Shown here: positions 12,782 to 31,519 of the stretch, in pieces
Layout of the letters: each line of letters opens with the position of its first letter
Position numbering within the stretch: the first letter of the stretch is position 1
From: Candidatus Saccharimonadota bacterium
GTDB taxonomy: Bacteria > Patescibacteriota > Saccharimonadia > Saccharimonadales > UBA4665
Length of the DNA stretch: 32,000 nt
Direction: 5' to 3'
NCBI GenBank assembly: GCA_002952755.1
Contig: CP025011.1
Coordinates: 1,410,001-1,442,000 of the forward strand
The notes under the pieces: generated by a model
What the model was told of the DNA's origin: nothing
The model's database searches: none
Seen by the model: only the letters and a program-made list of their open reading frames with translations
Position numbers and translations under genes: made by a program

Positions 12782-13384
12782 TCAAATTGCTAACGAATAG
12801 TTGTCGAGCGGCATTCCATTAAAATCAGGGGGTCCTAAATCTTTGATAAGCGAGAAGTGATCGACATGCTCGATCAGCTTAACCTTCGTATCGCCTGTCA
12901 GACGAGTAGCATCATCAAGATTAATTGGCCGGGTATACCGTGCAAGCGTGCAATGGGTGATGCCTGGTGGTTGTTTAGTACCTTCCGGCAGCGAAATTCG
13001 CTCAAGCAAGCGGACACGGATTGCATTCAACGCGGACGTATCGCTGGCCTTTATAATGATCGCCCCCTGACTCACAATGAGCTGATCGAACATAATATCG
13101 AATGGCGGGCAGGTGGACAGCACCTCGTGCACAATCCGGTTATACTTCTGATACCACTGCGCAAAATGTTCGGCCCGCGTTTTGTCTCTATACTCCGCAT
13201 CACAGATAATTTCCATAACCGTCACATGGAGGGCGGGAGGTTGCTGCAGCCAAATAGCGTCGCCAAAAGTCTGCACCAACTTTTCTTGTAGCGCTGCCAC
13301 ATATTGCGTTGCTGCTTTGCTCAATAAGATTGCTATATTATGCTCATCTTTAGAGTGTACTAGAGGGCTAGGAATTGTTAGCAT
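12782..13384 (-). CDS. 2H phosphoesterase superfamily protein (LigT / 2'-5' RNA ligase-like)
   Basis: Two H-x-T-x motifs at the expected spacing: LHVTVME and THCTLARY. The track start is TTG 13411; ATG 13384 (MLTIPSP) is preferred. Confidence 0.7.
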   Translation of the reverse strand: MLTIPSPLVHSKDEHNIAILLSKAATQYVAALQEKLVQTFGDAIWLQQPPALHVTVMEIICDAEYRDKTRAEHFAQWYQKYNRIVHEVLSTCPPFDIMFDQLIVSQGAIIIKASDTSALNAIRVRLLERISLPEGTKQPPGITHCTLARYTRPINLDDATRLTGDTKVKLIEHVDHFSLIKDLGPPDFNGMPLDNYSLAI

Positions 13385-13498
13385 GACGATATCATAGCAA
13401 GAAAAGAACAAAAATAGCCTAACTGTTCTGGCCCTAAATCTTCATATGTTGTTTGTTTTTTAGAGGACTCGACTAATCACTTACAGAGGAGTGGCTTC

Positions 13499-13650
13499 GA
13501 CACTGAGCAGGATAGTGAGCTTTGCCTTCTACAGAAAAACTTCCTCGGAATGCATTCCTGTGAGAGCTTTCCTTTCGCCAAACCTACGACTACGGTATCT
13601 TGCGCTACGCAAGATCCCTATCGTAGAACCAAACTCGGCGAATGTATCAA
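13499..13650. repeat. E1: ~150-nt structured repeat, degraded copy of E2
   Basis: Aligns by eye over its full length with 15311-15462 at roughly 80 percent identity. Contains the perfect hairpin ATCTTGCG-CTA-CGCAAGAT. Its left end (GACACTGAGCAGGAT) resembles the reverse complement of the tRNA-Arg 3' end. Confidence 0.7.
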
Positions 13651-13723
13651 GTAACGAAATGCGGAGCCCGGTTATTACAGAGCACTCCGTCTTGCGCGAT
13701 TAGTTAGCTGTTATGATTATTCC

Positions 13724-14290
13724 ATGCAACCCATAGAAGCTTTTAAACAACTCTGTTTGCTGTCAGTATTCATATTGCTCATTGGCCTTACTTTCTTGGC
13801 TATAAGGTGGCCAAAAGGCGTACATGCCACCTTCAGTCAGCATGCGGCAGTACAAAAGAAAACGATAGTTTACTATATTGTGCTGTTCATACTTGCCCTA
13901 CCACCACTTACTGCGTTCTTTATATTTTGGTTTGTGCCTACTTTTCATCTGAGTACCTGGTTTATTGCTTTTGCCGTATTGTCAGAGCTGTTTCAGCACA
14001 GCGTTACTTTTATACCGGAAGTTGGAGGCTGGAAAACGAAGTGGCATGTTTTCCTGACGAATTGCTCAGCGGCGTTGCTAGTTCCTATGCTTTTGATCTT
14101 GTTGGCTTCTTCCTATGTGACCGGGATAGCCAAGATTATCACGCTGCTTGGCTTATTTTCCATGCTATCAATAACGGCTTACTTCCAATCTATGAAGCTT
14201 GCTAATAAGCTTAAGTATCTAATGCTCCTGCAGGTGGGTTATTATGGAGCTTTCTTCATAGCAATACTCGTTACAGCCTATAGCTACTGA
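13724..14290 (+). CDS. hypothetical integral membrane protein (5-6 TM)
   Basis: 188 aa, almost entirely hydrophobic helices. AT-richer than its neighbours. Followed by a hairpin terminator inside repeat T-rep A. Confidence 0.6.
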   Translation: MQPIEAFKQLCLLSVFILLIGLTFLAIRWPKGVHATFSQHAAVQKKTIVYYIVLFILALPPLTAFFIFWFVPTFHLSTWFIAFAVLSELFQHSVTFIPEVGGWKTKWHVFLTNCSAALLVPMLLILLASSYVTGIAKIITLLGLFSMLSITAYFQSMKLANKLKYLMLLQVGYYGAFFIAILVTAYSY

Positions 14291-14300
14291 CCAAATAATC

Positions 14301-14401
14301 CCAACCCCGTCTAAGGTGTTAGCAAAAAGGAGCTTTTCTAAAAATCAAAAACAGAGGTACACATTGCCTCTGTTATGAGTTTTGTGATTATCAATTGGTA
14401 C
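14301..14401. repeat. T-rep A: ~100-bp direct repeat containing a terminator hairpin
   Basis: Shares TAAGGTGTTAGC ... AAAATCAAAAACAGAGG-loop-CCTCTGTTATGAGTTT ... GATTATCAATTGGTAC with 15213-15316. The stem ACAGAGG/CCTCTGT (14351-14373) is conserved while the loop has diverged. Confidence 0.75.
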
Positions 14402-14456
14402 GCCGTTGTAGATGAAGTTGTAACCTGTATTATACAGGAAGCTCTGGAGATGGACC

Positions 14457-14485
14457 TTTACATTCTAGACTGTCTAGACTATTAT
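14457..14485 (+). promoter_or_regulatory. toxin-antitoxin promoter with tandem TCTAGAC operator candidate
   Basis: -35 TTTACA (14457-14462) and -10 TATTAT (14480-14485). The 17-nt spacer consists of TCTAGAC-TG-TCTAGAC (14464-14479). The ATG at 14492 is 6 nt after the -10, so the mRNA would be leaderless. Confidence 0.55.
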
Positions 14486-14491
14486 GAACAT

Positions 14492-14740
14492 ATGATATGG
14501 CAACTGCAAGAAGCCAAGAACAAACTAAGCGAGGTCGTAGACACGAGCATTAACAATGGTCCGCAAATTATTAGTCGGCACGGCCATAATGCCGCTGTCG
14601 TCATTAGCTACGCGGACTATCAGCGCTACATAGCATCCACAAAAGGATTGAAGAAGACGCTCCTATCAAGCGGCCTGGACGAGCTTACATTGGCCCGAGA
14701 TAATTCCACTGTCGGTCGCACTACCGGCTTCTCGCTATGA
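14492..14740 (+). CDS. type II antitoxin, Phd/YefM family
   Basis: MIWQLQEAKNKLSEVVDTSINNGPQIISRHGHNAAVVISYADYQRY matches the Phd/YefM N-terminal pattern. 4-nt ATGA overlap with the PIN toxin gene. The track extension to 14375 lies inside repeat T-rep A and is rejected. Confidence 0.85.
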   Translation: MIWQLQEAKNKLSEVVDTSINNGPQIISRHGHNAAVVISYADYQRYIASTKGLKKTLLSSGLDELTLARDNSTVGRTTGFSL

Positions 14741-15165
14741 TAACGGGTTACTTACTTGACACCAATGCGATCAGTGAAGCGTCCAAAAAGAAGCCAGACA
14801 CTGGTTTTATTGAGTGGTTCACAAAAACCGATGAATTAGCCATGTTTACTTCTTGTATTGTGCTTGGTGAAATTAAAAAGGGTGTTTCACTCATCCGGGA
14901 CGAACCTAGACATAAACAGTTTGACACTCTTCTTGCTAAGCTCATCGTGCAGTTCGACGGTCGCATTGTAAATGTAGATAGTCGCACGGCTCTGCATTGG
15001 GGTGAACTACTGGCAACTGGCCAGCTCTCAGGGCAAACACCGCCTCTCATTGACGCGCTTATAGCCGCGCAATGTATTACACAGAATTTGATACTGGTAA
15101 CACGTAACATGAGAGATTTTGAGCAATTTGCAGGGGTCAAACTACACAGCCCCTGGGTCGGATAG
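14737..15165 (+). CDS. vapC: type II toxin VapC (PIN domain ribonuclease)
   Basis: N-terminal YLLDTNAISE (first acidic residue), LGEIKKG, and C-terminal LVTRNMRDF, as is typical of VapC. Translationally coupled to the antitoxin gene. Confidence 0.9.
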   Translation: MITGYLLDTNAISEASKKKPDTGFIEWFTKTDELAMFTSCIVLGEIKKGVSLIRDEPRHKQFDTLLAKLIVQFDGRIVNVDSRTALHWGELLATGQLSGQTPPLIDALIAAQCITQNLILVTRNMRDFEQFAGVKLHSPWVG

Positions 15166-15462: not shown

Positions 15463-15499
15463 AAGCAAAAACCCCACACAAGGTGGGGCCTTTGCTTGG
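15461..15499. terminator. bidirectional hairpin terminator abutting tRNA-Arg
   Basis: CCAAGCAAA-AA-CCCCAC-ACAAG-GTGGGG-CC-TTTGCTTGG. The outer arm includes the complement of the tRNA CCA end. Confidence 0.6.
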
Positions 15500-15573
15500 T
15501 ACACCCGACAGGATTCGAACCTACGACCTTTGGCTCCGCAAGCCAACGCTCTATCCAGCTGAGCTACGGGTGC
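15497..15573 (-). tRNA. tRNA-Arg (anticodon GCG)
   Basis: Reverse complement is GCACCCGTAGCTCAGCTGGATAGAGCGTTGGCTTGCGGAGCCAAAGGTCGTAGGTTCGAATCCTGTCGGGTGTACCA. It folds into a cloverleaf by eye. Anticodon stem TTGGC/GCCAA with loop TTGCGGA. CCA is encoded. Confidence 0.85.
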
Positions 15574-15650: not shown

Positions 15651-15741
15651 GGAGAGGTCGCATAGTTGGTCTAGTGCGCTGCACTCGAAATGCAGTATGG
15701 GTGCAAGCCCATCGAGGGTTCGAATCCCTCCCTCTCCGCCA
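15651..15741 (+). tRNA. tRNA-Ser (anticodon CGA)
   Basis: GGAGAGG acceptor stem, anticodon arm CTGCA-CTCGAAA-TGCAG, long variable arm ATGGG-TGCAAG-CCCAT, T arm GAGGGTTCGAATCCCTC, and CCTCTCC-G-CCA at the 3' end. Confidence 0.9.
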
Positions 15742-17240: not shown

Positions 17241-17280
17241 CAAAACAAAACAGCCTACTACTGCAGACTGTTTTGTTTTG
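17241..17280. terminator. bidirectional hairpin terminator abutting tRNA-Ser(GCT)
   Basis: CAAAACAAAACAG-N14-CTGTTTTGTTTTG, a 13-bp perfect stem. Lies between the HD gene and the tRNA 3' end. Confidence 0.7.
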
Positions 17281-17371
17281 GCGGAGAGGGAGGGATTCGA
17301 ACCCTCGCGGGAACTTGCGCCCCCCTATCGATTTAGCAAACCGACCCCTTCAGCCGCTTGGGTACCTCTCC
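17279..17371 (-). tRNA. tRNA-Ser (anticodon GCT)
   Basis: Reverse complement is GGAGAGGTACCCAAGCGGCTGAAGGGGTCGGTTTGCTAAATCGATAGGGGGGCGCAAGTTCCCGCGAGGGTTCGAATCCCTCCCTCTCCGCCA. Anticodon arm TCGGT-TTGCTAA-ATCGA. Long variable arm. CCA is encoded. Confidence 0.9.
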
Positions 17372-17882: not shown

Positions 17883-17970
17883 TGGCGGAAGGGGTGGGAT
17901 TCGAACCCACGGTGAGTTGCCCCACGACGGTTTTCAAGACCGTTACCATCGACCGCTCGGTCACCCTTCC
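17883..17970 (-). tRNA. tRNA-Ser (anticodon TGA)
   Basis: Reverse complement is GGAAGGGTGACCGAGCGGTCGATGGTAACGGTCTTGAAAACCGTCGTGGGGCAACTCACCGTGGGTTCGAATCCCACCCCTTCCGCCA. Anticodon arm ACGGT-CTTGAAA-ACCGT. CCA is encoded. Confidence 0.9.
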
Positions 17971-18857: not shown

Positions 18858-19343
18858 ATGGCGCGACGCACAAGTGGCGACGACGACCTGCTCATGCAAG
18901 AGGACGAATTAACCGCCGCTTTTTTGGGTGATGATGAAGCAATTGCTCCAGCAGATACCCAGAGCGCAGGCGCTGGACCAACGGCCGCAAATGATGATTG
19001 GGACGAAAGCGAAGACCTGCCAGGGCAACTCGCAGTAGACGTATACGAAACCAGAGAAAAACTGGTTGTAAAAGCCCGGACTGCCGGTGTAAATAAGAGT
19101 GACCTTGACGTTAGTATTTCTGACAACACACTCAGTATTCGCGGCACATTATCTGCCGGCAACGAAGACGGAGTAGAGAACTACTTTGTTCAGGAATGCT
19201 ACTGGGGCGAATTCTCTCGCAGCATTGCGCTGCCGGTGCCAGTTAAGGAAGAAGAGATCGAAGCTGTTCTTAAAGACGGCGTCCTTACCATCAGCTTTGC
19301 AAAAGTAAAACAGGATACGGTAAAAAAGATCCAGGTCCTCTAA
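18858..19343 (+). CDS. Hsp20/alpha-crystallin family small heat shock protein
   Basis: Alpha-crystallin domain: QLAVDVYETREKLVVKARTAGVNKSDLDVSISDNTLSIRG ... GEFSRSIALP ... IEAVLKDGVLTISFAK. GGAGGG Shine-Dalgarno 8 nt upstream of the ATG. Confidence 0.9.
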   Translation: MARRTSGDDDLLMQEDELTAAFLGDDEAIAPADTQSAGAGPTAANDDWDESEDLPGQLAVDVYETREKLVVKARTAGVNKSDLDVSISDNTLSIRGTLSAGNEDGVENYFVQECYWGEFSRSIALPVPVKEEEIEAVLKDGVLTISFAKVKQDTVKKIQVL

Positions 19344-19360
19344 AAAACTGCCAGAACTAT

Positions 19361-19390
19361 AAAACACCATCGTTCATCCGATGGTGTTTT
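19361..19390 (+). terminator. rho-independent terminator of hsp20
   Basis: AAAACACCATCG-TTCATC-CGATGGTGTTTT, a perfect 12-bp stem with a T-run. Confidence 0.8.
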
Positions 19391-19641
19391 ATTATATGCA
19401 AAACGCAACAGGTCCGCTGGCCATATAGACTCACCCCCTTTAAAAATAATGTATATGGTACCTGAGTGAGGCTAATTTTATTTCAGCATTCCTGGCAACA
19501 GTGCCTGGTATATTGTGTGGAAATTAATTCAGGGTGGGAGCGAGAGAAGGACAGATGCCAATGCTTACGTCTAGTGTTATCAGCTCATACTGTACGGTAT
19601 GCTGCCTCATAGACCTGCTCTTATATTCTCAGCCCATATAT

Positions 19642-19672
19642 AAAAACCCGCCTTTTTTAGGGGCGGATTTTT
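19642..19672. terminator. hairpin terminator at the 3' end of the pilin array
   Basis: AAAAAC-CCGCC-TTTTTTAGG-GGCGG-ATTTTT, 24 nt beyond the stop codon of the last pilin gene (19696). The A and T runs allow it to work in both directions. Confidence 0.5.
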
Positions 19673-19695
19673 GACGTGTTCGAAATAAATGTAGC

Positions 19696-20148
19696 TTACG
19701 GTCCTGCCGGCGCTCCGGTGCCCGTATTGTTCACTTTGTCGAAGACAAACTTAACAACAACTTGTGCCAGAGCAACGATAACGAGGCCGATTACCGCATA
19801 CACAATAGTGTTTTTGGCGCTGGTAATATTGCCTGAATCGCCCCCGGAAGTAATGTACTTAAAGCCGCCAAGCACGATCATGATAACGGCAATAATACCG
19901 ACTACGATAGAGAAAATGTTTATAACCGTAGTAACAATATTCTGGACTTTGGTCGCCGATGATTGGTCGGCACTCGTATCAGCAGTACAAGTCTGGCCAT
20001 TACCAGCAGTGCTCAACCCGGTGCCTTGAGATAAGCAGTCGCCGATAGTAGGAGCTGCATGCACCGCAACAGGCACTAGCGCAGGCACAATGCTAAGCGC
20101 AAGAGTGGCGACGATAGCCGCGAAATGCTTACGAACGGTTTGTAACAT
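19696..20148 (-). CDS. VirB2/TrbC-like T4SS pilin paralog a
   Basis: Signal peptide ending VAVHA/AP. Variable Cys-bracketed region (C38...C54). Conserved core INIFSIVVGIIAVIMIVLGGFKYITSGGDSGNITSAKNTIVYAVIGLVIVALA, i.e. two TM helices around a GGxxYxTSxGD loop. AAAGGA Shine-Dalgarno sequence. Candidate extended -10 TGGTATAAC upstream. Confidence 0.75.
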   Translation of the reverse strand: MLQTVRKHFAAIVATLALSIVPALVPVAVHAAPTIGDCLSQGTGLSTAGNGQTCTADTSADQSSATKVQNIVTTVINIFSIVVGIIAVIMIVLGGFKYITSGGDSGNITSAKNTIVYAVIGLVIVALAQVVVKFVFDKVNNTGTGAPAGP

Positions 20149-20228
20149 AATGAAATGTCCTTTCTTTGAACGCTTTATTTACGTTATACCACAGGCATAA
20201 GCCGCATTACAATGGCACCGGAAAAAAA

Positions 20229-20678
20229 TTAGGATCTTGCTTTGGCCTTAACTGGGGGCGGGGTAGCAGTCGAGGTAGTGACGACATACTTAACGAGAAT
20301 TTGAGCAAAGAACACCAATACCAAGCCAATAATTGCGTACGTAATAGTTTGCTTAGCCTTGGAAACAGCATTGGCGTCACCCCCAGAAGTTATATAACGA
20401 AACCCGCCAACCATCATCATAATCACCGCAACAATACCGACTATGATACTAAGTATGTTCACTGCCGAAGCAATCGTATTGTCCAGGGATGGGCCGCTAC
20501 TTACACACACTGCGCCAGTACCCGGATTTGTCCAGGTACCCCCCGAACCAATACAAGCCTGCTGCTTAGCAGCATCAGTAGAAGTGTCGGCCGAAGCTGG
20601 AGCGGGTAACAGCCAGTTGCTCGCAACGACGCTAATAAGAGTTACGCTTATGAGCAATATACGCCTGAATATATACAT
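20229..20678 (-). CDS. VirB2/TrbC-like T4SS pilin paralog b
   Basis: Signal peptide ending PASA/DT. Cys pair C42...C58. Core VNILSIIVGIVAVIMMMVGGFRYITSGGDANAVSKAKQTITYAIIGLVLVFFA, the closest match to paralog a. GGAGG Shine-Dalgarno sequence. Confidence 0.75.
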   Translation of the reverse strand: MYIFRRILLISVTLISVVASNWLLPAPASADTSTDAAKQQACIGSGGTWTNPGTGAVCVSSGPSLDNTIASAVNILSIIVGIVAVIMMMVGGFRYITSGGDANAVSKAKQTITYAIIGLVLVFFAQILVKYVVTTSTATPPPVKAKARS

Positions 20679-20688
20679 GTTGCCTCCA

Positions 20689-21102
20689 TTATTTCACGAT
20701 ATTAACAGCTAGGGCAAGAATTGCTTGGGCAAGAAGAATAACGAGCAGCCCAATGCCTGCAGCAATCATGGTACGCCGGGCGTTCGCCGCTTTATTGGGA
20801 TCGCCAGCGGCCGTAACATAATTAAAACCACCGACTATCATTAAAATTACCGCGGCGATACCTGAGACAGTCGACAGTATGAGCCCAACCTTGTACAAAA
20901 TGCCGTTGGTGCCGCCAATAGGATTTTGCCCACTCGTCGTACAAACCGTTGAAGGGTTTTTGCCGGGCGTATTAGTCACACCTGTGTTCGAGCAGGCGTT
21001 TTGAAATGGATTAAAAGCTGCTGCTGAATGTGGTAAGAAAACAAAGACGATTCCAAACGCCAGTACAAAAACCGTAACCAGCAAGCGCGTATGTCGCAAC
21101 AT
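20689..21102 (-). CDS. VirB2/TrbC-like T4SS pilin paralog c
   Basis: Signal peptide ending HSAAA/F. Cys pair C37...C54. Core LILSTVSGIAAVILMIVGGFNYVTAAGDPNKAANARRTMIAAGIGLLVILLA. AGGAGG Shine-Dalgarno sequence. Confidence 0.75.
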   Translation of the reverse strand: MLRHTRLLVTVFVLAFGIVFVFLPHSAAAFNPFQNACSNTGVTNTPGKNPSTVCTTSGQNPIGGTNGILYKVGLILSTVSGIAAVILMIVGGFNYVTAAGDPNKAANARRTMIAAGIGLLVILLAQAILALAVNIVK

Positions 21103-21115
21103 ATTATATTACCTC

Positions 21116-21811
21116 CTATATATGACCAAGTGCATAGTTAACAATCGAGAAGGCAAGCATGGATACAACCAGTCCAATAGCAGCATATATAATCGTGTTT
21201 TTCGTTTTTGCCATAGTATTAGGGTCGCCATTGGAAGTAACGTAGCGCAATCCGGCGATAATCAGCACTAATAACGCCACGCTGCCAAATAGCCCAATCA
21301 CAATATTATAGAGGGAGAGAAGTGTAGTATTTGATGCCGCTGCATTAGGCAGGCTACTTAGGTCTACCCCGCTTGAGGTTTTGCCTGCACCTCCAGTTCC
21401 ACCAAGACTCTCGCCAAGGAACCGTACGGCAGCAGCAGCGACGACGGTGATTCCTAGACCCACGAGGGAATTAATAATGGTGCCGAGGGCATGCTTGGCT
21501 TTTTCGGGTTCACCCTGCGCGGTTATATATTGAAAGCCGGCATACACGATAAACCCGATGGCAACCAGAGCGCCGACACGGAGCAAAATATCGACAACAC
21601 CAAGACCGACCAAACCAATCGAGCTAAGATCAAGATTACCGGTTGTATGATCAATAAAATGCGGGTCCACCGAACAAAGACCGCTCGAATCTATTGTTAC
21701 GTACTTCGCCCTGTCGAGATACTCAAACCACGAAGGGATCCCAAAGAAATTTCCTGGCTCCGGGCAGGGGCTCGCTCCAGCGGCAAAATGAGTCAATATA
21801 TCCAAAAACAT
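21116..21811 (-). CDS. tandem double-domain VirB2/TrbC-like pilin paralog d
   Basis: Two copies of the core in one ORF: VGALVAIGFIVYAGFQYITAQGEPEKAKHALGTIINSLVGLGITVVA and GLFGSVALLVLIIAGLRYVTSNGDPNTMAKTKNTIIYAAIGLVVSMLA, joined by a Gly/Ser-rich linker. The N-terminus (MFLDILTHFAAGASPCPEPGNFFGIPSWFEYL) has no obvious signal peptide. No clear Shine-Dalgarno sequence. Confidence 0.7.
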   Translation of the reverse strand: MFLDILTHFAAGASPCPEPGNFFGIPSWFEYLDRAKYVTIDSSGLCSVDPHFIDHTTGNLDLSSIGLVGLGVVDILLRVGALVAIGFIVYAGFQYITAQGEPEKAKHALGTIINSLVGLGITVVAAAAVRFLGESLGGTGGAGKTSSGVDLSSLPNAAASNTTLLSLYNIVIGLFGSVALLVLIIAGLRYVTSNGDPNTMAKTKNTIIYAAIGLVVSMLAFSIVNYALGHI

Positions 21812-21839
21812 GTCGATACCAGATACCGTTCATTACTCA

Positions 21840-22454
21840 TTATAGGATACCTCCGGGTGTAATCCACTGCAGGAAGGCCCACAAAAATCCAAAGGCTATA
21901 ATCGCTATAACCGCATTAATAATACGCTGCTGAGCCGCTGCTGTGACATTCGGCTGGTCTGCCGAGGTGCTGTACTGAATACCCGCGACAATAATAGAAA
22001 TGACAGCGGCAAGTACTACCACGACAGCCAATGTATTAATAATGGGATTTAGGTATTGGCGAACGATGCTGCACTGCTGCTGCGGGTCGAGTTCTGTTGG
22101 GCAATTGTTCCCACCTTTTGCGGCATTGTCAGTGCTGCCCGACGCGGTCTGAGCCTGGACGACATTCTTGGCTTGAAAAACGTCCCCGGAACAGTCGGAT
22201 TGCGATACCCAGCCTTTCGCGGCATCCGATAGGGTGTAACATTTACCGGCTGCAAAGATGCCTTTACTCGGAGCTTTACCGTCCACGGGAAGGGTAGGAG
22301 TATCTGCGCATTGTGTAGTTATGCCAGCTAGTGCGTCAAAACATAATGCAGGACTGGCAGCGTGCACAATGGCTGCCGGAAATACTGCCGACGGTACCGC
22401 GACTGCCGCACTGAAGAGGACTACTTGAATTATGTGTTTTACGCGCTGCAGCAT
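21840..22454 (-). CDS. VirB2/TrbC-like T4SS pilin paralog e (long ectodomain)
   Basis: Signal peptide ending AIVHA/AS. A ~115-aa Cys-containing variable region. Core INTLAVVVVLAAVISIIVAGIQYSTSADQPNVTAAAQQRIINAVIAIIAFGFL, the most diverged of the paralogs. Confidence 0.65.
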   Translation of the reverse strand: MLQRVKHIIQVVLFSAAVAVPSAVFPAAIVHAASPALCFDALAGITTQCADTPTLPVDGKAPSKGIFAAGKCYTLSDAAKGWVSQSDCSGDVFQAKNVVQAQTASGSTDNAAKGGNNCPTELDPQQQCSIVRQYLNPIINTLAVVVVLAAVISIIVAGIQYSTSADQPNVTAAAQQRIINAVIAIIAFGFLWAFLQWITPGGIL

Positions 22455-22738
22455 ATCTTCCGTTTTTTAGTTCTGCTTATTATAGAGTATAGGTCATCGC
22501 AGAATAATCACAAGCTACCCCGTATTTACACTTATCCCTACTCGCGTCATCCCGGATCTATTCTTACCGACTTCATGTATTCCGCTGCTGGATGTCGGTC
22601 AAGTCCGGGAGGACCAAGAGTGGACGTTTTAAGACATGCGCGGGCACGAGCAGACGGGTATAAGCAACCGCATGCTCGTTGTATTAAATAGTGCCTGCTG
22701 CTACACTTTAACTTGAAAGCAAAGAGATACTACAAAGC
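22455..22738. promoter_or_regulatory. divergent intergenic control region between the pilin array and the T4SS-like operon
   Basis: 284-bp ORF-poor spacer between the divergent starts at 22454 (minus) and 22739 (plus). Contains the inverted repeat ACGAGCA (22646-22652) / TGCTCGT (22673-22679). No consensus promoter is assigned with confidence. Confidence 0.4.
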
Positions 22739-23173
22739 ATGCGTCCTCGTCGATTAATCGTCATAGCTTCGCTGGCAACCATCATTTTAGTGGCCATTCC
22801 TTTGATTTTTATTCATAAGGGCGATGGTTATCGTGGTGTTTGTGACTCGCTACTAAAAGATATTCAAAAAAACGATGCTGCCAGCAGCTACAGTTTGCTT
22901 TCTGATACAGCCAAACGCACTGACTCGCTTTCTAGCTGGACGGGTAAAGTAAAGTTGCTCTACAACGTCTACTATAAAAGTACAGTTACGCCCGTAAAAA
23001 GTGTCGATTTAACCACCACTGTCAATAAAAAGAAGGGGCCGACGCGTATCGAGTACGTCTATACGGTTACTAATCAATTTGCCACCTCCGATGCACTTTG
23101 CTACGCCACGAAGCCTTCAGGCTATAAAGTAGATTCTTTCTCGAGCGCAGTGAGACAGGAGGGCACTCAATGA
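22739..23173 (+). CDS. small N-terminally anchored protein (possible NTF2-like / VirB8-like accessory)
   Basis: 144 aa. N-terminal TM segment (LIVIASLATIILVAIPLIFI), then a ~110-aa domain whose pattern (LLKDIQKNDAASSYSLLSDTAKR...) recalls small NTF2-like lipoprotein domains. ATGA overlap with the next gene. The functional assignment is an inference only. Confidence 0.55.
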   Translation: MRPRRLIVIASLATIILVAIPLIFIHKGDGYRGVCDSLLKDIQKNDAASSYSLLSDTAKRTDSLSSWTGKVKLLYNVYYKSTVTPVKSVDLTTTVNKKKGPTRIEYVYTVTNQFATSDALCYATKPSGYKVDSFSSAVRQEGTQ

Positions 23174-26100
23174 GGCGCCCTAAAGTTGCGAAAATTGGGC
23201 ACTCGTTTCAGCAAGCCACTATCATTTTCGCCGCCCTAGTTGGAATCATTCTGCCTGCGACCGCACCTTTTCTCAAAACCAGCCATGCAGATGAGGTTGG
23301 AACGTCTTTTACTACTATAAATGGAGGCATATTCAAGGGTCCCGGCGGTGGAGTACCTATCGCTCATGCTATTGCATGTAAGGGGGGCATGATACCGGGA
23401 CAGACGCTTGCGGCCACTAGTATAGATACGTCACTCGGCCGAAATCCGGCTGGCGATTCTGGCAACACCTTCAATGATGTCTATAATTCTACCGGTATGT
23501 ATGCTGGCTTGCCCCGGCAGACAAACATCTTCGGATATCTGGGTCTTCCTGCTGCTGGCCGCGACCCTGGTGCCATACCCGAAGCAACAGCCACTGCATG
23601 GACATCATATATTTATGACCACTTTAACCAGCGAGTTACCACCCTAGGCCTTTTTCAAGGAGTAAATGGGCCTGGCCTGGACCCATGCGGATCAGGGCCA
23701 AACCGTCAATCAGATACGCCGCATCTTGTCATGATTCCAGTCGCTGACGATACTTGGGTCGCGTCGCAGTACAGCAATATTATTGCACAGGGAGGAGTTG
23801 GACAGCCAGCCCTGATTATCTTTCATCAAACCGGGCTGTCTCCTGCGGGTAACGCTGTTGGCTCCCTCTCATATTGGTACCCTGATTCCAGTAAAGGTAT
23901 AGGCATGGCCTACAAGGGGCTGGACACTCAGGGTAAGCCTATCAACGGCGGCCCTCAGCAGAACGTTATCGTTGAGGGCGTGTCCACCTCATCTAATCCT
24001 GTTGCTACAGGTAATGTCTCTAACGCTGAGTGGGTAGACGTGTCGACTATTAAAATACAGGTGAGCTACAATGGCGGCGCACCTATTACAGAAACGTACA
24101 TCAACCCTTCGTGGGATAATCATAGTTTCTATTTCCTGGCGAGCACTCCAAGCCCGACTCGTCAGGCCCTTATAGGCGCGGCCAAACAAGCCGATCCGTT
24201 CAGTAACGCCGCGCAAAACCAGGTACCTTTTATATGGATTCCGGACGCCGGCTTTACCGAACATAACGGCGAAGGTATTCTTAACTTATCCTACGATCGG
24301 CTCAGTCAGAGCCCGGGACTTGGTGACCTAAATCATAACATCGCCGGGTACACGTTTGCCAATCCGGCGTTTTATGATTACTCCCCCGGAAACCCGCCTG
24401 TGCCTGTTGGCCATGATGGAAAAAATCCGGCCCTTCCGGCAGGTCAGGTTATTACCAATAGCAGCCATCTTAATGGCGATATCTGGTTCTATGGCAGCAA
24501 AGCAAGCAATGCCTTTGTTACTGCTTGGACCAAAGGCAATGGCAACGAGCAGAACTATATTGGAGTCTACACCTTTGACAATGCATCAAAGTTTTACGTG
24601 CACAGTGCCAAAGACTGTTCTGCGCTTGGCCAGATTAATTTAGGCACAACTATTGATAATATTACGCCGAACACAGAATTTCCGATACCGAAGTGGACCC
24701 TAGAGCCGCCGGGCCAATCCTGTCAGCCCCCTGCATATGGCAGCATCACCAAAGCATATGCAATTATTGATGACCAAAAATTCACGGCTATCTCGGGCAT
24801 TATAGCCGGCGCTGCTGCCAATTCGAATGGAAATAACCAGCAGTTGATATGTGATATCGGATGGAATCCTCTCACATGGCTGATTTGCCCGATCGCCCAA
24901 GGCGCCATCTCTCTGGCTGGTACGTTCGATACTGCCATCAACGACATGCTCAATATAAGCGTCAATACCTATCTAGACGAAAGTAAGCCCGGATCGGCAG
25001 GGGCAGATTTTTATGCAGCCTGGAACAGTTTCCGCGTTATCTCCATGGCGCTCATTGTAATTGCTGGGTTGATAATGGTGATGTCGCAAGCGCTGGGTGC
25101 CGAACTACTGAATGCTTACACCATCAAAAAAATGCTGCCTCGATTGCTCATGGCCGTCGTGTTCATTGCTGCTTCATGGCAACTACTTAAAGCGGCGGTA
25201 ACTGCATCAGACGTGGTCGGCTACGGGACACGTTATCTTATCTACAAGCCATTTAGTACGGGGTTAGGTGCCGCCCACATTGGCGCAGGCACATCCGACG
25301 TTCTAGGAGTGTTAGGGGGTGCGGCTGTTGTTGGCCTAGGTATTTTTGGCATCTTGAGCTTTGCACTTACTGGTCTACTTGCGTCACTGGTTGGATTCGT
25401 GTTGCTTACGTTCCGGGAAATGGTCGTTTTATTTGCGATTGCAATATCTCCTGTCCCCATCGCACTCTCTATCTTGCCGAATACCCGTAAGGGCTGGAAG
25501 ATTTGGGGGGATACTCTGAGCGGCGCACTCCTGATGTTCCCGATTGTGGCTGGCTTTATCGCGATAGGCCATGTCTTTGCTCAAGTCGCCGCAAAAGTAA
25601 ATGCCGGCGTGATCGGCCAACTCATATTTATCATCGCCTACTTTGCACCATACTTCCTTATTCCTTTAGCCTTCCGTCTGGCTGGCGGCCTGGTAGCCAC
25701 AGTAGGTGGAGTAGTGAACGACCGCAGCAAGGGTGCCTTTGACCGTCTTAAGAATTATCGCTCCAACAAATTCAAAACCAACATGCAAAAGGTTGCTGAA
25801 GGACGGCGCTTTAACGAGCTTGGTCAATTCCAAAGTAATAACCTGCTTGCACGGACAGCTAACCGGGGTATTCGCGGGCTCAACCGGGGTATTAGTGGTT
25901 TTAATGATACAACTGAGGTCGCCGGTGCTTTCGGTGCAGCAGAAGCAAAATTCGGTTTCTTAACGAATCGGGGAATACGCCAAGCTGCCCTAAGCCAACA
26001 TCGTGACATGGTTGGCGCCAAATACGCTCAGACCGGACGGGCGCAGGCGACCAAGGAAGACGACCTACTGCACCAAGCACGAACGTTCGGCAGCGAAGAA

Positions 26101-27141
26101 GAAGCGCGTGCCGGCCTCGCTGCCCGCTTCCGAAATATGAATTACGACGTCAACACTGACGAAGGACGCCGCAACATGGAAGCAGCCCTTTCTGCCGCCC
26201 GGGCAGCAGGCGGATACAGCAGGGCATACCAACGCTACTCATTGCGTCGCCTTGCAGCTACAGGAACTGGCTATGGTGACGTGGGCGACATGCTGCGTGC
26301 AGTAAGTGACGTGGCCGGAGATAATCGCGCCGAAGCTTCTGCCTTGCTCGGCGAATTAAATGCTGTTTCTGGCAATGTAGGCCGTCACGACCTCAAGCTT
26401 GGGTACGGTACTCAAATGCGCTTGTACGACCGGCTTCAGGCAGCCGGCCACCTGACCGAGGAAGAAGTTGACGATGCGGTGTATACAGCCGATAAAGACC
26501 TCGATAGCGTCAGCCGTATTCGCGACAAAAAGGTCTCCGTCGAAAACCTGAGCAAATCAACGGCACGGGTGTTTAGGCGCCTGGAGGTTCAGCGCGATAC
26601 TGCCACTGACCCTGTTGTCATACAACAAGCTCGCGACGAACTGGATCGAGCAACGGGCCTTATCAACAAGGCGGAATCAGCCTTTGCATATGGATCTACG
26701 ACGAATGTACAGGCTACTAATGATAACGTCGGCCGTGCGACCAGCGGCGCAAATACCGGCCTGGTAGTCGAAAACGCCGCGTATAACCCCGCGCTTCCGC
26801 CCTCACCGACAAATCCGCAAACTATATACGTTCCCGCCACTGGCCGGCGACGTGTGCAAATGGAGGCTAACCCTGTGGAAACAAAGATTAACCCAACAAC
26901 TGACCGACCTGAAATTACCTACGAGATCGCTCGCTATCCCGCAGGACATGCGTTGGCGGGGCAGGAAATTATCGACGAATTTGGTACTCCAACACTATAT
27001 AGAGATCCTGACACTGGCCGCCCCGTTCTCAGACAAAATCCAGCTACGAATGCTGTCACACAGCGTTCTGCGGAAAACCAACGTATCTACGGCGTAGGCA
27101 CGGGCACGGGCGACCCTCAAAACAACGGTCTTATAACCTAA
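23170..27141 (+). CDS. 1323-aa VirB6/TrbL-like polytopic membrane protein with large N-terminal ectodomain and C-terminal cytoplasmic domain
   Basis: AGGAGGG Shine-Dalgarno sequence. Signal peptide (IIFAALVGIILPATAPFLKTSHA/DE). A ~570-aa Gly/Asn/Pro-rich extracytoplasmic region. A cluster of ~6-7 TM helices at aa ~615-850 (nt ~25010-25720). A ~470-aa charged Arg/Ala/Asp-rich C-terminal region. The position and topology match the VirB6-type channel subunit of Gram-positive T4SSs (ConG/PrgH/TcpH class). Confidence 0.7.
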   Translation: MRRPKVAKIGHSFQQATIIFAALVGIILPATAPFLKTSHADEVGTSFTTINGGIFKGPGGGVPIAHAIACKGGMIPGQTLAATSIDTSLGRNPAGDSGNTFNDVYNSTGMYAGLPRQTNIFGYLGLPAAGRDPGAIPEATATAWTSYIYDHFNQRVTTLGLFQGVNGPGLDPCGSGPNRQSDTPHLVMIPVADDTWVASQYSNIIAQGGVGQPALIIFHQTGLSPAGNAVGSLSYWYPDSSKGIGMAYKGLDTQGKPINGGPQQNVIVEGVSTSSNPVATGNVSNAEWVDVSTIKIQVSYNGGAPITETYINPSWDNHSFYFLASTPSPTRQALIGAAKQADPFSNAAQNQVPFIWIPDAGFTEHNGEGILNLSYDRLSQSPGLGDLNHNIAGYTFANPAFYDYSPGNPPVPVGHDGKNPALPAGQVITNSSHLNGDIWFYGSKASNAFVTAWTKGNGNEQNYIGVYTFDNASKFYVHSAKDCSALGQINLGTTIDNITPNTEFPIPKWTLEPPGQSCQPPAYGSITKAYAIIDDQKFTAISGIIAGAAANSNGNNQQLICDIGWNPLTWLICPIAQGAISLAGTFDTAINDMLNISVNTYLDESKPGSAGADFYAAWNSFRVISMALIVIAGLIMVMSQALGAELLNAYTIKKMLPRLLMAVVFIAASWQLLKAAVTASDVVGYGTRYLIYKPFSTGLGAAHIGAGTSDVLGVLGGAAVVGLGIFGILSFALTGLLASLVGFVLLTFREMVVLFAIAISPVPIALSILPNTRKGWKIWGDTLSGALLMFPIVAGFIAIGHVFAQVAAKVNAGVIGQLIFIIAYFAPYFLIPLAFRLAGGLVATVGGVVNDRSKGAFDRLKNYRSNKFKTNMQKVAEGRRFNELGQFQSNNLLARTANRGIRGLNRGISGFNDTTEVAGAFGAAEAKFGFLTNRGIRQAALSQHRDMVGAKYAQTGRAQATKEDDLLHQARTFGSEEEARAGLAARFRNMNYDVNTDEGRRNMEAALSAARAAGGYSRAYQRYSLRRLAATGTGYGDVGDMLRAVSDVAGDNRAEASALLGELNAVSGNVGRHDLKLGYGTQMRLYDRLQAAGHLTEEEVDDAVYTADKDLDSVSRIRDKKVSVENLSKSTARVFRRLEVQRDTATDPVVIQQARDELDRATGLINKAESAFAYGSTTNVQATNDNVGRATSGANTGLVVENAAYNPALPPSPTNPQTIYVPATGRRRVQMEANPVETKINPTTDRPEITYEIARYPAGHALAGQEIIDEFGTPTLYRDPDTGRPVLRQNPATNAVTQRSAENQRIYGVGTGTGDPQNNGLIT

Positions 27142-29227: not shown

Positions 29228-30496
29228 ATGTCTACCTACAAGGTCATTCAGGATGTGGAGGCCGAGGACAAGCTCATTGGGCCGTTGTCGCTTCGGCAGT
29301 TTATCTATGCCGGCATTTCGGCTATCTGCTTGTATCTTTGCTATTTCTTAAGCACGCATCATGCGGCGTTCTTGACGATCGTCTTGATCCCGGTTGCTTT
29401 TATATCGGGCTTTTTTGCATTCCCTTGGGGGAGGGACCAGCCGACCGAACTCTGGGCGCTGGCCAAGATCCGCTTTTTTTTGAAACCCCGTCGCAGAGTC
29501 TGGGATCAGGATGGCGTCAAGGAACTGGTGACCATTACAGCGCCTAAGCATGTACAGGTTGATTACACCAACGGCCTTTCGCAAGACGAAGTGCACAGCC
29601 GGCTGCAGGCGCTGGCCGCCACCATTGATAGCCGTGGTTGGGCTATTAAGAATGCCAACCTCACTGTGTCTACCCAGCCAACGCTCGTCATGGGCGATCC
29701 GCAGTCCGACCGTCTGGTGAATCCCAGCTCCTTACCCCAACCTGTATCCGACGTGCAGATAAGCGCTGCCGACGACATTCTGGACGAAAAGAACAATGCA
29801 GCAGCGTCACGTGTCGACAGTATGATTTCGGCCAGCTCAAAAGCGCACCGTGATAAACTACTGGAAGAGATGCGCAAAAAGGATGCGCCAACCCTGCCGC
29901 CGCCGCCAAAGTCCGCAGCTACAGCAGCGGCTCCACAGAAGCCAAACGACTACTGGTTCCTCAATCAGCCCGCCCAGCCTGCCGGTATTCCTAATAATAT
30001 GGTTACTTTTAACACCCAGGTTGTCACCCCGGCCACCCCCAGTACATCCGCGCCTATCTCCGATCCTGTCATAACTTCAGCGGTGACTCCTGTACAAAGT
30101 ACTACGAGCACTCCACCCCAGGACGAAGCGAGTATCGTCGCCGAACTCGATGCTAAAAAACAGGAATTACCGACAACCGCCTATTACAATCACTTGCACA
30201 CCATTCAACCGCTTTCTGCCCAGCAGCAGGCTAGTACACCTCCAGCGCAATCACCAGACATACCTACCGCTCAACCGGTAGCGCCACAGTACAAATACAA
30301 CGCCGTGACACCCACAACACCGAGCCCCGGTCCCGTTGCTCCGCCGGCCGCTGCAGCCGTAGCAGCGCCGGTGACACCCATTCAGCAGGCTGCTATACTA
30401 CAGCTATCCAGGAATGACGATCTGAATGTGGCCACCTTGGCCCGCGAAGCCGAACGATCGGCACCACAAGACGAAGTCGTCATTAAACTGCATTAA
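29228..30496 (+). CDS. PrgI/VirB3-like T4SS membrane protein with long Pro/Thr/Ala-rich C-terminal tail
   Basis: N-terminal YKVIQDVEAEDKLIGPLSLRQFIYAGISAICLYLCYFL followed by a second TM helix (FLTIVLIPVAFISGFFAF) and the motif WALAKIRFFLKPRRRVW, which is the PrgI-family pattern. Residues ~190-400 are low-complexity P/T/A/Q. Confidence 0.7.
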   Translation: MSTYKVIQDVEAEDKLIGPLSLRQFIYAGISAICLYLCYFLSTHHAAFLTIVLIPVAFISGFFAFPWGRDQPTELWALAKIRFFLKPRRRVWDQDGVKELVTITAPKHVQVDYTNGLSQDEVHSRLQALAATIDSRGWAIKNANLTVSTQPTLVMGDPQSDRLVNPSSLPQPVSDVQISAADDILDEKNNAAASRVDSMISASSKAHRDKLLEEMRKKDAPTLPPPPKSAATAAAPQKPNDYWFLNQPAQPAGIPNNMVTFNTQVVTPATPSTSAPISDPVITSAVTPVQSTTSTPPQDEASIVAELDAKKQELPTTAYYNHLHTIQPLSAQQQASTPPAQSPDIPTAQPVAPQYKYNAVTPTTPSPGPVAPPAAAAVAAPVTPIQQAAILQLSRNDDLNVATLAREAERSAPQDEVVIKLH

Positions 30497-30505
30497 AAGA
30501 GGGAT

Positions 30506-31519
30506 ATGAATCCGAACGCACCAAACCAACCATATTCAGGTGGACAAACTCAGCCGGGCATGCCTTATGTGTCGCAGCAAGCTGCCTCGATGGCACCCGC
30601 TGGGGGCCCGCAGAACGTAGCCGGTGCTCATCCTGTTATTGCCAGCGATCTCATGCACCAGGCAGCTGGCATGGCAGCGTCGGTCGGCGCTCCTGATGCT
30701 TCCGCTGCGCCACAACCAACAAATGTAGTCGCCGGCGGTCCCGCCGCAGCCACTGGGGCAGACGGCAAGCCTTTAGTAGCTACACCACACACCAATCCTA
30801 ACAGCACCCAAAATACGCTGCTAATTGCCGAGATCCGCGACGGTATTGTGATCATGAACGACGGCTCATTCCGATCTGTTGTGATGGTCAAATCAGTCAA
30901 CTTCGACCTGATGAGTCCCCAGGAGCAGGAATCAGTAGAGTATTCGTATCAAGGATTCTTAAACTCGCTCTATTTCCCAATTCAAATCTTCATCCGCTCG
31001 CAAAAAGTGGACTTACAACCATACGTCGAGAAACTCGACAAAATCCGCACCGAGCATGACAACATGCTCCTTGCCATGCTCATGGAAGATTACATTACCT
31101 ATATCGACCAGTTGTCGCAGCAAACCAACATTATGGACAAAAAATTCTACATAGTTATTCCGTACTTTCCGCATGTTGATGTCCAAAAAGCACTCACTCA
31201 AAGCAAGAACTTTTTTACCGGCTTTTTGAACCTATTTAATACCAAAGAACAGCACGTAGTAGTGAATGAAGCCGATCTCGAAAAGGCCAAAACCGAGCTT
31301 CGTAACCGCGTCCAGGCCGTCCTCCAAGGTGCGTTACAATGTGGTATTCAAGGCTTGCCGCTCGACACCCAGGAGCTTATCGAACTATTCTACGACACCT
31401 ATAACCCAGACACGGCTACCCGCCAACAACTAAAGAATTTTGGAAGTCTGACCGCCGATATTATCACTAAAGGGCAAGGGAATGCCCCTCAGGCACACTT
31501 ACAACGGGAGCTCAACTAA
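30506..31519 (+). CDS. T4SS-associated protein: disordered N-terminus plus VirB4 N-terminal-domain-like region, no ATPase motifs
   Basis: AGAGGGA Shine-Dalgarno sequence. The first ~100 aa are Ala/Pro/Gly/Gln-rich. The remainder (LLIAEIRDGIVIMNDGSFRSVVMVKSVNFDLMSPQEQESVEYSYQGFLNSLYFPIQIFIRSQKVDL...) follows the pattern seen at VirB4/TrbE/CagE N-termini. No Walker A motif. The stop codon overlaps the next ATG (TAATG). Confidence 0.55.
   Translation: MNPNAPNQPYSGGQTQPGMPYVSQQAASMAPAGGPQNVAGAHPVIASDLMHQAAGMAASVGAPDASAAPQPTNVVAGGPAAATGADGKPLVATPHTNPNSTQNTLLIAEIRDGIVIMNDGSFRSVVMVKSVNFDLMSPQEQESVEYSYQGFLNSLYFPIQIFIRSQKVDLQPYVEKLDKIRTEHDNMLLAMLMEDYITYIDQLSQQTNIMDKKFYIVIPYFPHVDVQKALTQSKNFFTGFLNLFNTKEQHVVVNEADLEKAKTELRNRVQAVLQGALQCGIQGLPLDTQELIELFYDTYNPDTATRQQLKNFGSLTADIITKGQGNAPQAHLQRELN

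Follow-up and report, generated by a model that had tools for sequence, protein, structure and literature searches.

Six VirB2-like pilin modules in five tandem genes beside a type IV secretion locus of a Saccharimonadales bacterium

We analysed a stretch of 32,000 nucleotides (nt) from a Candidatus Saccharimonadota bacterium (assembly GCA_002952755.1, contig CP025011.1, positions 1,410,001 to 1,442,000 of the forward strand), hereafter the window, and found that five neighbouring open reading frames (ORFs) beside the genes of a type IV secretion system (T4SS) encode six VirB2-like modules of the pilin family PF18895. This array is real: the six modules, their distribution over five ORFs and their place next to T4SS genes are confirmed. 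We propose, at a probability of roughly 0.55, that the locus is the chromosomal VirB2-like pilin set of a monoderm-type Saccharibacteria T4SS, and that its products form a fixed, non-redundant, co-assembling kit in which the last gene supplies the major subunit. Such an array has already been published for this bacterial class, and the local peculiarity is only the fusion of the second and third modules. The window is another copy of a known array and holds nothing categorically new; it is the comparison with relatives that narrows the hypotheses to a fixed six-part kit. The pilin array is the most unusual feature of the Saccharibacteria T4SS, because monoderm T4SSs normally have no pilin, and the function of this essential system has been called 'completely unknown' (PMC11665869).

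Six pilin modules in five genes

The minus strand of the window is filled from 19696 to 22454 by five co-oriented ORFs, whose ends in the ORF listing match exactly those given in a preliminary description of the locus, which had been made from the letters alone. We number the genes from the end of the array and the modules from its beginning (all coordinates are those of the window unless a locus is named; aa, amino acids):

21840-22454, minus strand: pil5, module 1, 204 aa
21116-21811, minus strand: pil4, modules 2 and 3 fused, 231 aa
20689-21102, minus strand: pil3, module 4, 137 aa
20229-20678, minus strand: pil2, module 5, 149 aa
19696-20148, minus strand: pil1, module 6, 150 aa

From the pil1 side to the pil5 side, the gaps between the ORFs are 80, 10, 13 and 28 nt. 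The earlier estimate of five or six modules can now be settled at six: there are five genes but six modules because two of the modules are fused in pil4. Each gene had also been credited with its own Shine-Dalgarno sequence, and canonical ones (GGAGG or AAGGA) do precede pil1, pil2 and pil3, whereas those ahead of pil4 and pil5 are weak or absent.

Profile searches assigned the five proteins to one family. Against PF18895 (T4SS_pilin; gathering score 26.6 bits), we obtained 50.5 bits for pil1 (E 2e-13), 57.5 bits for pil2 (E 1.5e-15), 35.8 bits for pil3 (E 8.6e-9) and 75.4 bits, in two separate stretches, for pil4 (E 3.7e-21). At 26.1 bits (E 9.4e-6), pil5 falls just under the cutoff; its membership is secured by the match between its ortholog profile and that of pil1 (hhalign 98.7%, E 3.5e-16) and by the 39.8 bits that its ortholog at locus L013 scores on the same family (L numbers denote loci of relatives). 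The TrbC/VirB2 family PF04956 (gathering score 27.9 bits) is passed by pil1 with 28.2 bits, pil2 (27.4 bits) and pil4 (21.9 bits) lie below it, and pil3 and pil5 gave no match. All five proteins match the Mbov_0395 pilin-like family NF045849 over the whole core, with 36.6, 31.8, 33.7 and 35.7 bits for pil1, pil2, pil3 and pil5, respectively, and 53.2 bits for pil4. Although akin to this family, the proteins of the array fall outside its equivalog, whose score of 40 bits only the two-module pil4 exceeds. The six core modules can be aligned without gaps, at pairwise identities of 21-51%. That five neighbouring ORFs match one small Pfam family is no chance pattern, and the matches to PF18895 and PF04956, together with the T4SS locus, uphold the earlier assignment of the genes to VirB2/TrbC-type pilins.

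Hydropathy segments and AlphaFold2 (AF2) models agree with a core in which a short polar loop connects two hydrophobic helices. The AF2 model of pil1 contains one hairpin (helices 58-100 and 108-141) with a predicted local distance difference test score (pLDDT) of 72.9, and that of pil4 contains two (62-97/102-136 and 161-192/197-230) with a pLDDT of 63.6; both are of moderate confidence. The core motif said to be shared by all five ORFs is present in pil1, pil2, pil3 and the second module of pil4, and is looser in the first module of pil4 (AGFQYITAQGEPEKAK) and in pil5 (AGIQYSTSADQPNV..AAQQ).

Outside the core, the proteins differ. Signal peptides with ends of the AxA type, as read from the sequence, are present in pil1, pil2, pil3 and pil5. 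In pil5 the signal peptide (..IVHA, followed by AS) leads into an ectodomain of about 100 aa with six cysteines, and the hairpin core (aa 133-200) ends in ..PGGIL. In pil3 (..SAAA, followed by FNPF) a Cys37-x16-Cys54 loop precedes the core at aa 67-137; in pil2 (..ASA, followed by DT) a Cys42-x15-Cys58 loop precedes the core at aa 64-133, which is followed by a Pro/Lys-rich tail; and pil1 (..AVHA, followed by AP) combines a Cys38-x15-Cys54 loop with the most conserved core of the array (GGFKYITSGGDSGNITSAKNTIVYAVIGLVIVALAQ). We found no N-terminal signal peptide in the sequence of pil4, a four-helix protein whose acidic N-terminal 60 aa (net charge -6) carry C16, C46 and an FFGIPSWFEYL motif; core A (aa 61-133, nt 21413-21631) is joined to core B (aa 160-231, nt 21119-21334) by a linker of aa 134-159. 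The mature N-terminal regions measure about 37-102 aa, and the cysteine counts from pil1 to pil5 are 2, 2, 2, 2 and 6. These signal peptides and cysteines bear out, for four ORFs, the exported, Cys-bracketed N-terminal regions described before. The statement that these regions differ completely was slightly overstated, since a Cys-x15/16-Cys loop directly before helix 1 is common to pil1, pil2 and pil3; otherwise no significant similarity was found among the paralog ectodomains.

The pil4 N-terminus (21764-21811) bears only a hydrophobic stub of 10-15 aa, MFLDILTHFAAGASPC, as it does in most loci. In a few lineages (L078:6374-6826; L014:4631-5401), module 2 has a full signal peptide that ends just ahead of the first conserved cysteine. 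We rejected a lipoprotein signal for module 2 (an FAAxxC stub): the stub lacks a basic n-region, has too short a hydrophobic stretch and contains only a poor lipobox.

Conservation of the set, its fusions and a candidate promoter

We surveyed relatives by scanning species-representative genomes with an alignment of pil1 (393 genomes) and keeping the best 80 loci. Modules were counted with a hidden Markov model (HMM) of the six cores in the 69 loci with complete arrays. We found six modules in 57 arrays, seven in nine and eight in three, with all modules co-oriented and no array holding fewer than six. Position-specific HMMs, trained on close relatives only, were then applied to 54 independent six-module arrays: modules 1, 2, 3 and 6 stood at their own position in 53-54 of the 54, module 1 being first in every one, and module 5 did so in 48, module 4 often being confused with module 5. 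The extra modules of the larger arrays lie at the array end and are pil1-like in all but one case. In 66-69 species-level genomes, with pil1 identities as low as about 45%, the same six modules recur in the same number and order. These comparisons identify each of the six as an ancient 1:1 orthogroup, with an order that is fixed across the class.

The surroundings of the array are equally constant. Contigs of close relatives (pil4 homologs of 39-67% identity) repeat the arrangement of the window, all five genes occurring in unchanged order with the T4SS operon on one side and Hsp20/ComF on the other, and the array adjoins VirB4/PrgI/TrbL-like genes in every relative examined. In the window, in L006-L014 and in Candidatus Southlakia epibionticum, the synteny is the same: a divergent VirB6-like gene and T4SS operon on one side and a convergent Hsp20 gene on the other. 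A scan of species-representative genomes made with the 1323-aa VirB6-like protein of the window yielded no confirmed relative, and a tblastn search of 72,556 plasmids with pil1 produced no hit that would indicate a plasmid-borne source. Almost all relatives are labelled Candidatus Saccharibacteria or Saccharimonadales. Some metagenome-assembled genomes (MAGs) labelled 'Bacillota bacterium', 'Candidatus Limnocylindria', 'Nevskiaceae' or 'Candidatus Parcubacteria' carry a typical six-pilin locus (L032/L006, DATIJU010000008.1; L055, DATHJH010000032.1; L094, DATLCF010000001.1; L026, JAEYSX010000003.1), which in L006 (DATIJU010000008.1) is accompanied by the full T4SS operon and the Hsp20/ComF synteny. 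Mislabelling or contamination of these bins is the probable reason.

The closest described counterpart is the T4SS locus of Candidatus Southlakia epibionticum ML1, in which SEML1_0014-0019 are six PF18895 proteins (Wang et al. 2023, PMC10633639). Their genes measure 399, 558, 312, 381, 384 and 417 bp, the 0015/0016 pair overlaps by 4 nt, and all six scored 'GD ES ES' in transposon sequencing (Tn-seq) (PMC10633639). Both arrays consist of six tandem PF18895 modules on one strand, with a divergent VirB6/TrbL-like gene and a convergent Hsp20 gene; in both, the last gene is the one annotated 'pilin', and a relaxase and a coupling protein are absent from the locus (PMC10633639; PMC12857230). The two differ in that Southlakia has six genes, whereas modules 2 and 3 form one 231-aa ORF in the window; the sequences are strongly diverged, and essentiality is known for Southlakia only. 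The organism from which the window comes is uncultivated. Judged by sequence and synteny, the window array is the ortholog of SEML1_0014-0019, with the fusion of modules 2 and 3 as its only deviation.

We examined how modules are joined in relatives. In most Saccharibacteria the counterpart of pil4 is a pair of genes of about 125 and 97 aa, the second start overlapping the first stop, and the ~125-aa module 2 protein of these unfused genomes has no signal peptide and carries a C..FFGLPTWYKYL motif. The single ORF for modules 2 and 3 is confined to the clade of the window (L016, L025, L029, L032 and contigs of close relatives). Independently of this fusion, modules 1 and 2 are fused in frame in L038:5918-6760 and L069:6018-6836, where the ...PGG end of module 1 runs into the C..FLGLKPWFAYL start of module 2. 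An apparent fusion of modules 3 and 4 at L069 6836-7516 was rejected, being a frameshift that leaves the second helix of module 3 garbled.

Longer concatenations came to light in a phmmer search with pil4 against 1.84 billion representatives, which returned 13,358 hits; at least two modules were present in 109 of the best 150, a sample biased toward multi-module proteins because the query itself has two modules. In other lineages of the candidate phyla radiation (CPR), we found 'polypilins', single polypeptides of 380-1150 aa with 4-11 tandem hairpin modules:

Polypilin proteins: P0149, P0158, P0166, P0168/P0296, P0171, P0178, P0181, P0201, P0267

Exactly six modules in one polypeptide occur in, for example, P0149, P0166, P0168/P0296, P0178 and P0181, and others have up to eleven. 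P0168/P0296 comes from a Candidatus Andersenbacteria MAG; the cluster member from such a MAG is PIT98131.1. We found no mention of polypilins in the accessible portions of the literature on Patescibacteria T4SS pilin arrays.

Divergence among orthologs is concentrated outside the cores. In alignments of close relatives, orthologs were on average 48-76% identical in the cores, 22-46% in the ectodomains and 11-45% in the signal peptides, and the pil1 core was the most conserved (76%, with a nonsynonymous divergence, dN, of 0.06-0.12). The comparison of core and ectodomain that the preliminary description had proposed gave a dN 2-5 times higher in ectodomains (0.38-0.61) than in cores (0.06-0.32) in four of the five genes, pil2 being the exception, and a ratio of nonsynonymous to synonymous divergence (omega) below 1 wherever it was computable. 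The synonymous divergence, dS, was saturated or not computable, the closest genomes being at about 65% aa identity, and saturated dS leaves room for positive selection at individual sites. Measured against L006, identities were as follows:

Cytoplasmic proteins: 64-93%
Pilin cores: 56-89%
Pilin ectodomains: 38-67%
T4SS envelope proteins of 144 aa, 625 aa and 1323 aa: 28-44%

The ectodomains are thus fast-evolving but not exceptional, because their neighbours in the T4SS envelope diverge more. Each keeps a signature of its own among orthologs, for example IG.CLSQGS.L......C in pil1, DASTDAAKQQAC.G.GGT...C in pil2, FNPF...C......C.T.G.NPI.G.NGIL in pil3 and C...FF.IP.WYEYL in pil4. Exactly two cysteines are found in module 2 of 49, module 5 of 44 and module 6 of 43 of 51 loci; module 3 usually has none. 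The term 'hypervariable' used before does not suit regions that retain their own motifs and Cys pairs while the 144-aa and 625-aa neighbours are more diverged. Within species, the array region (19301-23200) is 100% identical in five Logan metagenomic contigs (runs SRR9952761, SRR9952756, SRR9952762, SRR34954208 and SRR34954209), and two MAG pairs are likewise 100% identical over the array, so that these sequences contain no within-species polymorphism. A search of the locus for recombination cassettes and long repeats gave only the paralogy of the pil1 and pil2 cores (104 nt, 71% identity). Recombination between paralogs and copy-number variation, which the preliminary description had proposed to look for, are not supported by the locus or by the 69 arrays.

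Three elements around the array may govern its transcription:

20158-20212, minus strand: candidate pil1 promoter and ribosome-binding site in the 80-nt pil2-pil1 spacer; conserved motif
22486-22513, minus strand: promoter-like site upstream of pil5 (TTGTGA, 16 nt, TATACT, overlapping TCTATAAT); consensus scan only
19648-19666, either strand: GC-rich hairpin with T-runs on both strands; minus-strand reading CCGCCCCTAAAAAAGGCGGG-TTTTTAT

The pil1 spacer contains a -35 element, TTGTAA (20212-20207), an extended -10 element, TGTGGTATAAC (20193-20183), and a Shine-Dalgarno sequence, AAGAAAGGA (20166-20158). Across 51 loci, the spacer ahead of this last gene has a median length of 76 nt, compared with 0-10 nt at the other junctions; TGnTATAA occurs in 38 of 50 such spacers, against a background of 0.21 per kb. 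In the spacers of relatives, a conserved AAGAAAGGA ribosome-binding site follows the extended -10 element, about 34 nt before the ATG. The conserved motif makes pil1 a candidate for a dedicated promoter. The promoter-like site upstream of pil5 lies within the 284-nt divergent intergenic region that the array has in common with the T4SS operon, and the hairpin, which lies 30 nt past the pil1 stop, is likely to be a bidirectional terminator closing the pilin operon. Two further repeats were seen nearby or in relatives. At 19359-19392, 16 nt past the Hsp20 stop, there is a perfect 14-nt inverted repeat (ATAAAACACCATCG/CGATGGTGTTTTAT, 6-nt loop), likely the terminator of the convergent Hsp20 gene; and in L010 (9328-9446), an imperfect inverted repeat of about 120 nt (82% identity) occupies the divergent region between the T4SS operon and the first pilin gene.

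A proposed co-assembling kit and its alternatives

We reasoned from these observations to a model in which the modules act together; for this model we infer the topology, the disulfides, the activity of the promoter, the major and minor roles and the existence of a filament. Each module would insert with both termini outside (N-out/C-out), its N-terminal extension lying outside the cell, because the observed fusions need this topology to be functional; the acidic N-terminus of pil4 is consistent with an N-out tail. The extensions of five of the six modules carry paired cysteines, which may form extracellular disulfides, and four modules would be processed at cleavable signal peptides that modules 2 and 3 do without. 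The VirB4/VirB3/VirB6-like machine encoded next door would extract the six modules from the membrane and co-assemble them into one extracellular pilus or conduit. Its bulk would presumably consist of pil1, because it is encoded by the last gene, which has a conserved candidate extended -10 promoter of its own; no other module has so conserved a core, and duplications affect almost no module but this one. Modules 1-5 would be low-copy specialised subunits for priming, tip or base and could stand in for the missing VirB5, much as type IV minor pilins do in their own system, and the host cell would be met by an outer surface made of the faster-evolving ectodomains.

That the set is non-redundant and co-assembling is suggested by the independent fusions, by the polypeptides of 6-11 modules in other CPR lineages and by the conserved candidate promoter of pil1; the overlapping or closely spaced genes of unfused loci (median gaps of 0-10 nt) also speak for co-assembly. 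The T4SS pili with structures in the literature searched (F, T and H) are single-pilin polymers. The fusion of modules 2 and 3, the independent fusion of modules 1 and 2 (L038, L069) and the polypilins with 6-11 modules may be genomic traces of a heteromeric fibre, and we put forward, tentatively and with less than even confidence, that the six modules, as obligate partners, build a single T4SS fibre or conduit that is hetero-oligomeric and has its subunits in a defined arrangement. Several points weigh against the proposed kit. Proteins in which 6-11 modules are concatenated imply equal stoichiometry in the lineages that have them, at odds with a division into major and minor subunits. The essentiality of small operon genes in Tn-seq can reflect polarity, and the Southlakia genes have few insertion sites (11-16 each); our 80 loci were picked by similarity to pil1, which biases the survey; and the activity of the pil1 promoter is a prediction. 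A profile search of the PDB matched no solved pilin, giving only a chance hit to cytochrome bd, and a Foldseek search of the PDB with the pil1 model returned no pilin (E 9.8), helical hairpins being poor Foldseek queries. Because no solved pilin was matched, it is only the Pfam profiles and the secondary structure that point to structural equivalence with VirB2/TraA. Finally, the literature reports no filament for any Patescibacteria T4SS.

The main rival to the kit is a stoichiometric hetero-oligomeric ring or short conduit with one copy of each of the six hairpins in place of a long pilus, pictured as a pseudo-symmetric channel through membrane or wall, like a c-ring-like bundle or the stalk of a diderm T4SS. 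Independent fusions of neighbouring modules would suit such an assembly, as would whole arrays in single polypeptides (exactly six modules in several CPR lineages, up to 11 elsewhere) and the tight or overlapping genes of unfused loci; in the structure-based annotation of the Southlakia pilins, the nearest ECOD domains include 'F1F0 ATP synthase subunit C' and helical-bundle folds (PMC10633639), and according to the literature pili are normally absent from monoderm conjugative T4SSs. We nevertheless consider the ring unlikely: the candidate promoter, longer spacer and duplications specific to pil1 suggest unequal dosage, the ectodomains, which are exported, bracketed by cysteines, faster-evolving and up to 100 aa or more in length, look surface-exposed, and arrays of 2-11 modules in other Patescibacteria mean that a fixed six-fold ring is not general. 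Improbable, in our judgement, is a repertoire of interchangeable pilins, in which each paralog would build a filament alone and the choice among them would serve antigenic variation or host-range switching. This possibility, included in the preliminary description and raised, in the part of their article available, by Quinonero-Coronel et al. by analogy with Bartonella and Anaplasma virB2 (PMC12102498), would account for exposed N-terminal regions that are very divergent among paralogs, for the raised ectodomain dN in four of five genes and for the additional one or two copies in 12 of 69 arrays, which with a single exception are pil1-like. It is hard to reconcile with modules whose number, order and identity are kept across the survey, with ectodomains that each hold their own motif and Cys pair among orthologs, with a locus free of silent cassettes and recombination repeats, with omega below 1 where computable and with five metagenomic contigs identical across the array. 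Moreover, all six Southlakia genes are individually essential, the opposite of redundancy, and fused modules are not usable as alternatives. Among the three options that had been offered (host-range adaptation, antigenic variation and a heteropolymer), the heteropolymer is the only one that appears to fit the comparative data.

It is more improbable still that only pil1 is structural, and that the other five are pilin-fold accessory factors (chaperones, a membrane platform or regulators) that are never incorporated. Only pil1 passes the TrbC/VirB2 gathering score, and it is the most conserved module with a promoter-like element of its own; yet the same hairpin core and loop motif are found in all modules, modules 1, 4, 5 and 6 each have a signal peptide and an exported region with paired cysteines, features to be expected in subunits that leave the membrane, and Pfam and NCBIfam gave no sign of an enzymatic or regulatory domain. 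The idea that these are generic small hydrophobic membrane proteins unrelated to T4SSs, their motif a coincidence of composition, is effectively refuted. Weak, spurious hits to DctQ and cytochrome bd subunit II (Pfam, PDB search) and the name 'cytochrome bd-type quinol oxidase subunit 2' that some sources give to homologs (we found 5002 homologs of pil1) could be read in its favour; against it stand PF18895 E-values that reach 1e-21, the matches of all five proteins to the NCBIfam pilin-like family and the constant proximity of VirB4/PrgI/TrbL-like genes in the relatives examined.

We compared the array with other pilin systems. The accessible text of Quinonero-Coronel et al. 2025 catalogues 441 VirB2 arrays, with 2-11 genes each, from 383 assemblies of Patescibacteria (PMC12102498), and the array of the window belongs to this set. 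In these arrays, pilin genes of PF18895/PF04956 stand in tandem close to virB4; the arrays are abundant in Saccharimonadia and have a mean internal identity of about 25%, as against 21-51% among the window cores. Where those authors, in the same text, stress variability and adaptation to host strains by analogy with Bartonella and Anaplasma, the present comparison brings out a fixed order of six orthogroups, fusions and a putative last-gene promoter. In several divergent and partly tandem copies, the array resembles the virB2 families of Rickettsiales and Bartonella (Anaplasma phagocytophilum, Rickettsia); in the portions of the sources available, these paralogs vary from strain to strain and are taken for variants with a role in antigenicity or host interaction, whereas the window copies are 1:1 orthogroups across the whole class and their Southlakia orthologs are each essential.

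Like the diderm pilins VirB2, TrbC and TraA (Agrobacterium T-pilin, RP4 TrbC, F TraA), the window proteins are small, with a long signal peptide and a pair of hydrophobic helices that a short polar loop connects, and are encoded together with VirB3, VirB4 and VirB6. Diderm T4SSs normally have one pilin gene and no Cys-bracketed extension, a VirB7/9/10 outer-membrane core complex and a VirB5 tip (PMC12857230); the window system, in contrast, is monoderm, with six modules and no VirB5. Also related is the family NF045849 of the Mycoplasma integrative conjugative element (ICE; Mbov_0395/MMCAP2_0565), a monoderm system with VirB4 of the mating-pair-formation FATA (MPF-FATA) type that is matched across the core; by its NCBIfam name and description this family belongs to a mobile conjugative ICE, whereas the window holds a chromosomal housekeeping locus. 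The NF045849 matches place a VirB2-like hairpin in at least one monoderm MPF-FATA-type conjugation system. Systems of this type are described as lacking virB2 homologues in the available part of PMC12102498, which also carries the suggestion that Patescibacteria co-opted their pilin from another T4SS class; on this suggestion the NF045849 link bears, since it implies that VirB2-like hairpins are not confined to diderm systems. In having a proposed major subunit and an operon of low-abundance, non-redundant subunits, the array may be likened to the minor-pilin sets of type IV pili and type II secretion systems, which differ in fold and machinery (PilB/PilC) and show no sequence relationship to it.

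If the six modules are indeed obligate partners of this kind, the T4SS pilus of Patescibacteria would be heteromeric and partly concatenated, essential for epibiotic life and set in a monoderm envelope. The comparative analysis yields testable predictions for the cultivable Southlakia and TM7x concerning subunit stoichiometry, the internal promoter, contacts between neighbouring modules and the surface Cys loops as sites of host contact.

Neighbouring genes and other features of the window

Across the divergent intergenic region from pil5 begins the T4SS operon, which runs to the end of the window; on the far side of the array lies the Hsp20 gene:

18858-19343, plus strand: Hsp20, convergent, downstream of the array
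22739-23173, plus strand: 144-aa protein, first gene of the divergent T4SS operon; N-terminal transmembrane segment, no family match
23170-27141, plus strand: 1323-aa polytopic membrane protein, extended VirB6/TrbL-like, by homology to a 1196-aa protein of L013
27285-29162, plus strand: 625-aa T4SS-associated protein without family match; syntenic, fast-evolving
29228-30496, plus strand: 422-aa protein with an N-terminal PrgI (VirB3-like) domain (PF12666, E 2.4e-12)
30506-31519, plus strand: 337-aa TraC-like/TrsD-like protein, related to the VirB4 N-terminal domain (PF26593, precomputed annotation)
31519-32000, plus strand: VirB4-like ATPase, N-terminal 160 aa, by homology to L013; the gene continues past the window end

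The 1323-aa protein has no Pfam match itself and is homologous (E 1e-67) to the L013 1196-aa protein, which matches TrbL PF04610/TrbL_3; its Southlakia counterpart, SEML1_0013, is annotated TrbL/VirB6-like. A weak match to NCBIfam TrsD NF041427 was found for the 337-aa protein, and the 160 aa of the VirB4-like ATPase are 94% identical to the N-terminus of a 633-aa L013 protein (DUF87/P-loop_TraG/AAA_10). The 144-aa gene is syntenic in all relatives. Its product and the 625-aa protein, at 29% and 28.5% identity to their L006 orthologs, are the fastest-evolving of the locus yet strictly syntenic.

The other genes of the window are chromosomal housekeeping genes: a Mur ligase, TsaD, ValRS, Fur, a ComF-like protein and Hsp20, together with a Phd/PIN pair and four tRNAs:

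15497-15573: tRNA Arg-GCG
15651-15741: tRNA Ser-CGA
17279-17371: tRNA Ser-GCT
17883-17970: tRNA Ser-TGA

The Phd/YefM antitoxin and PIN-domain toxin genes overlap (14375-15165) and stand next to unannotated ORFs and the tRNA cluster. They fall within a stretch of lower GC content (13001-15000; 0.44-0.45, compared with about 0.51), a segment that may be a small acquired island.

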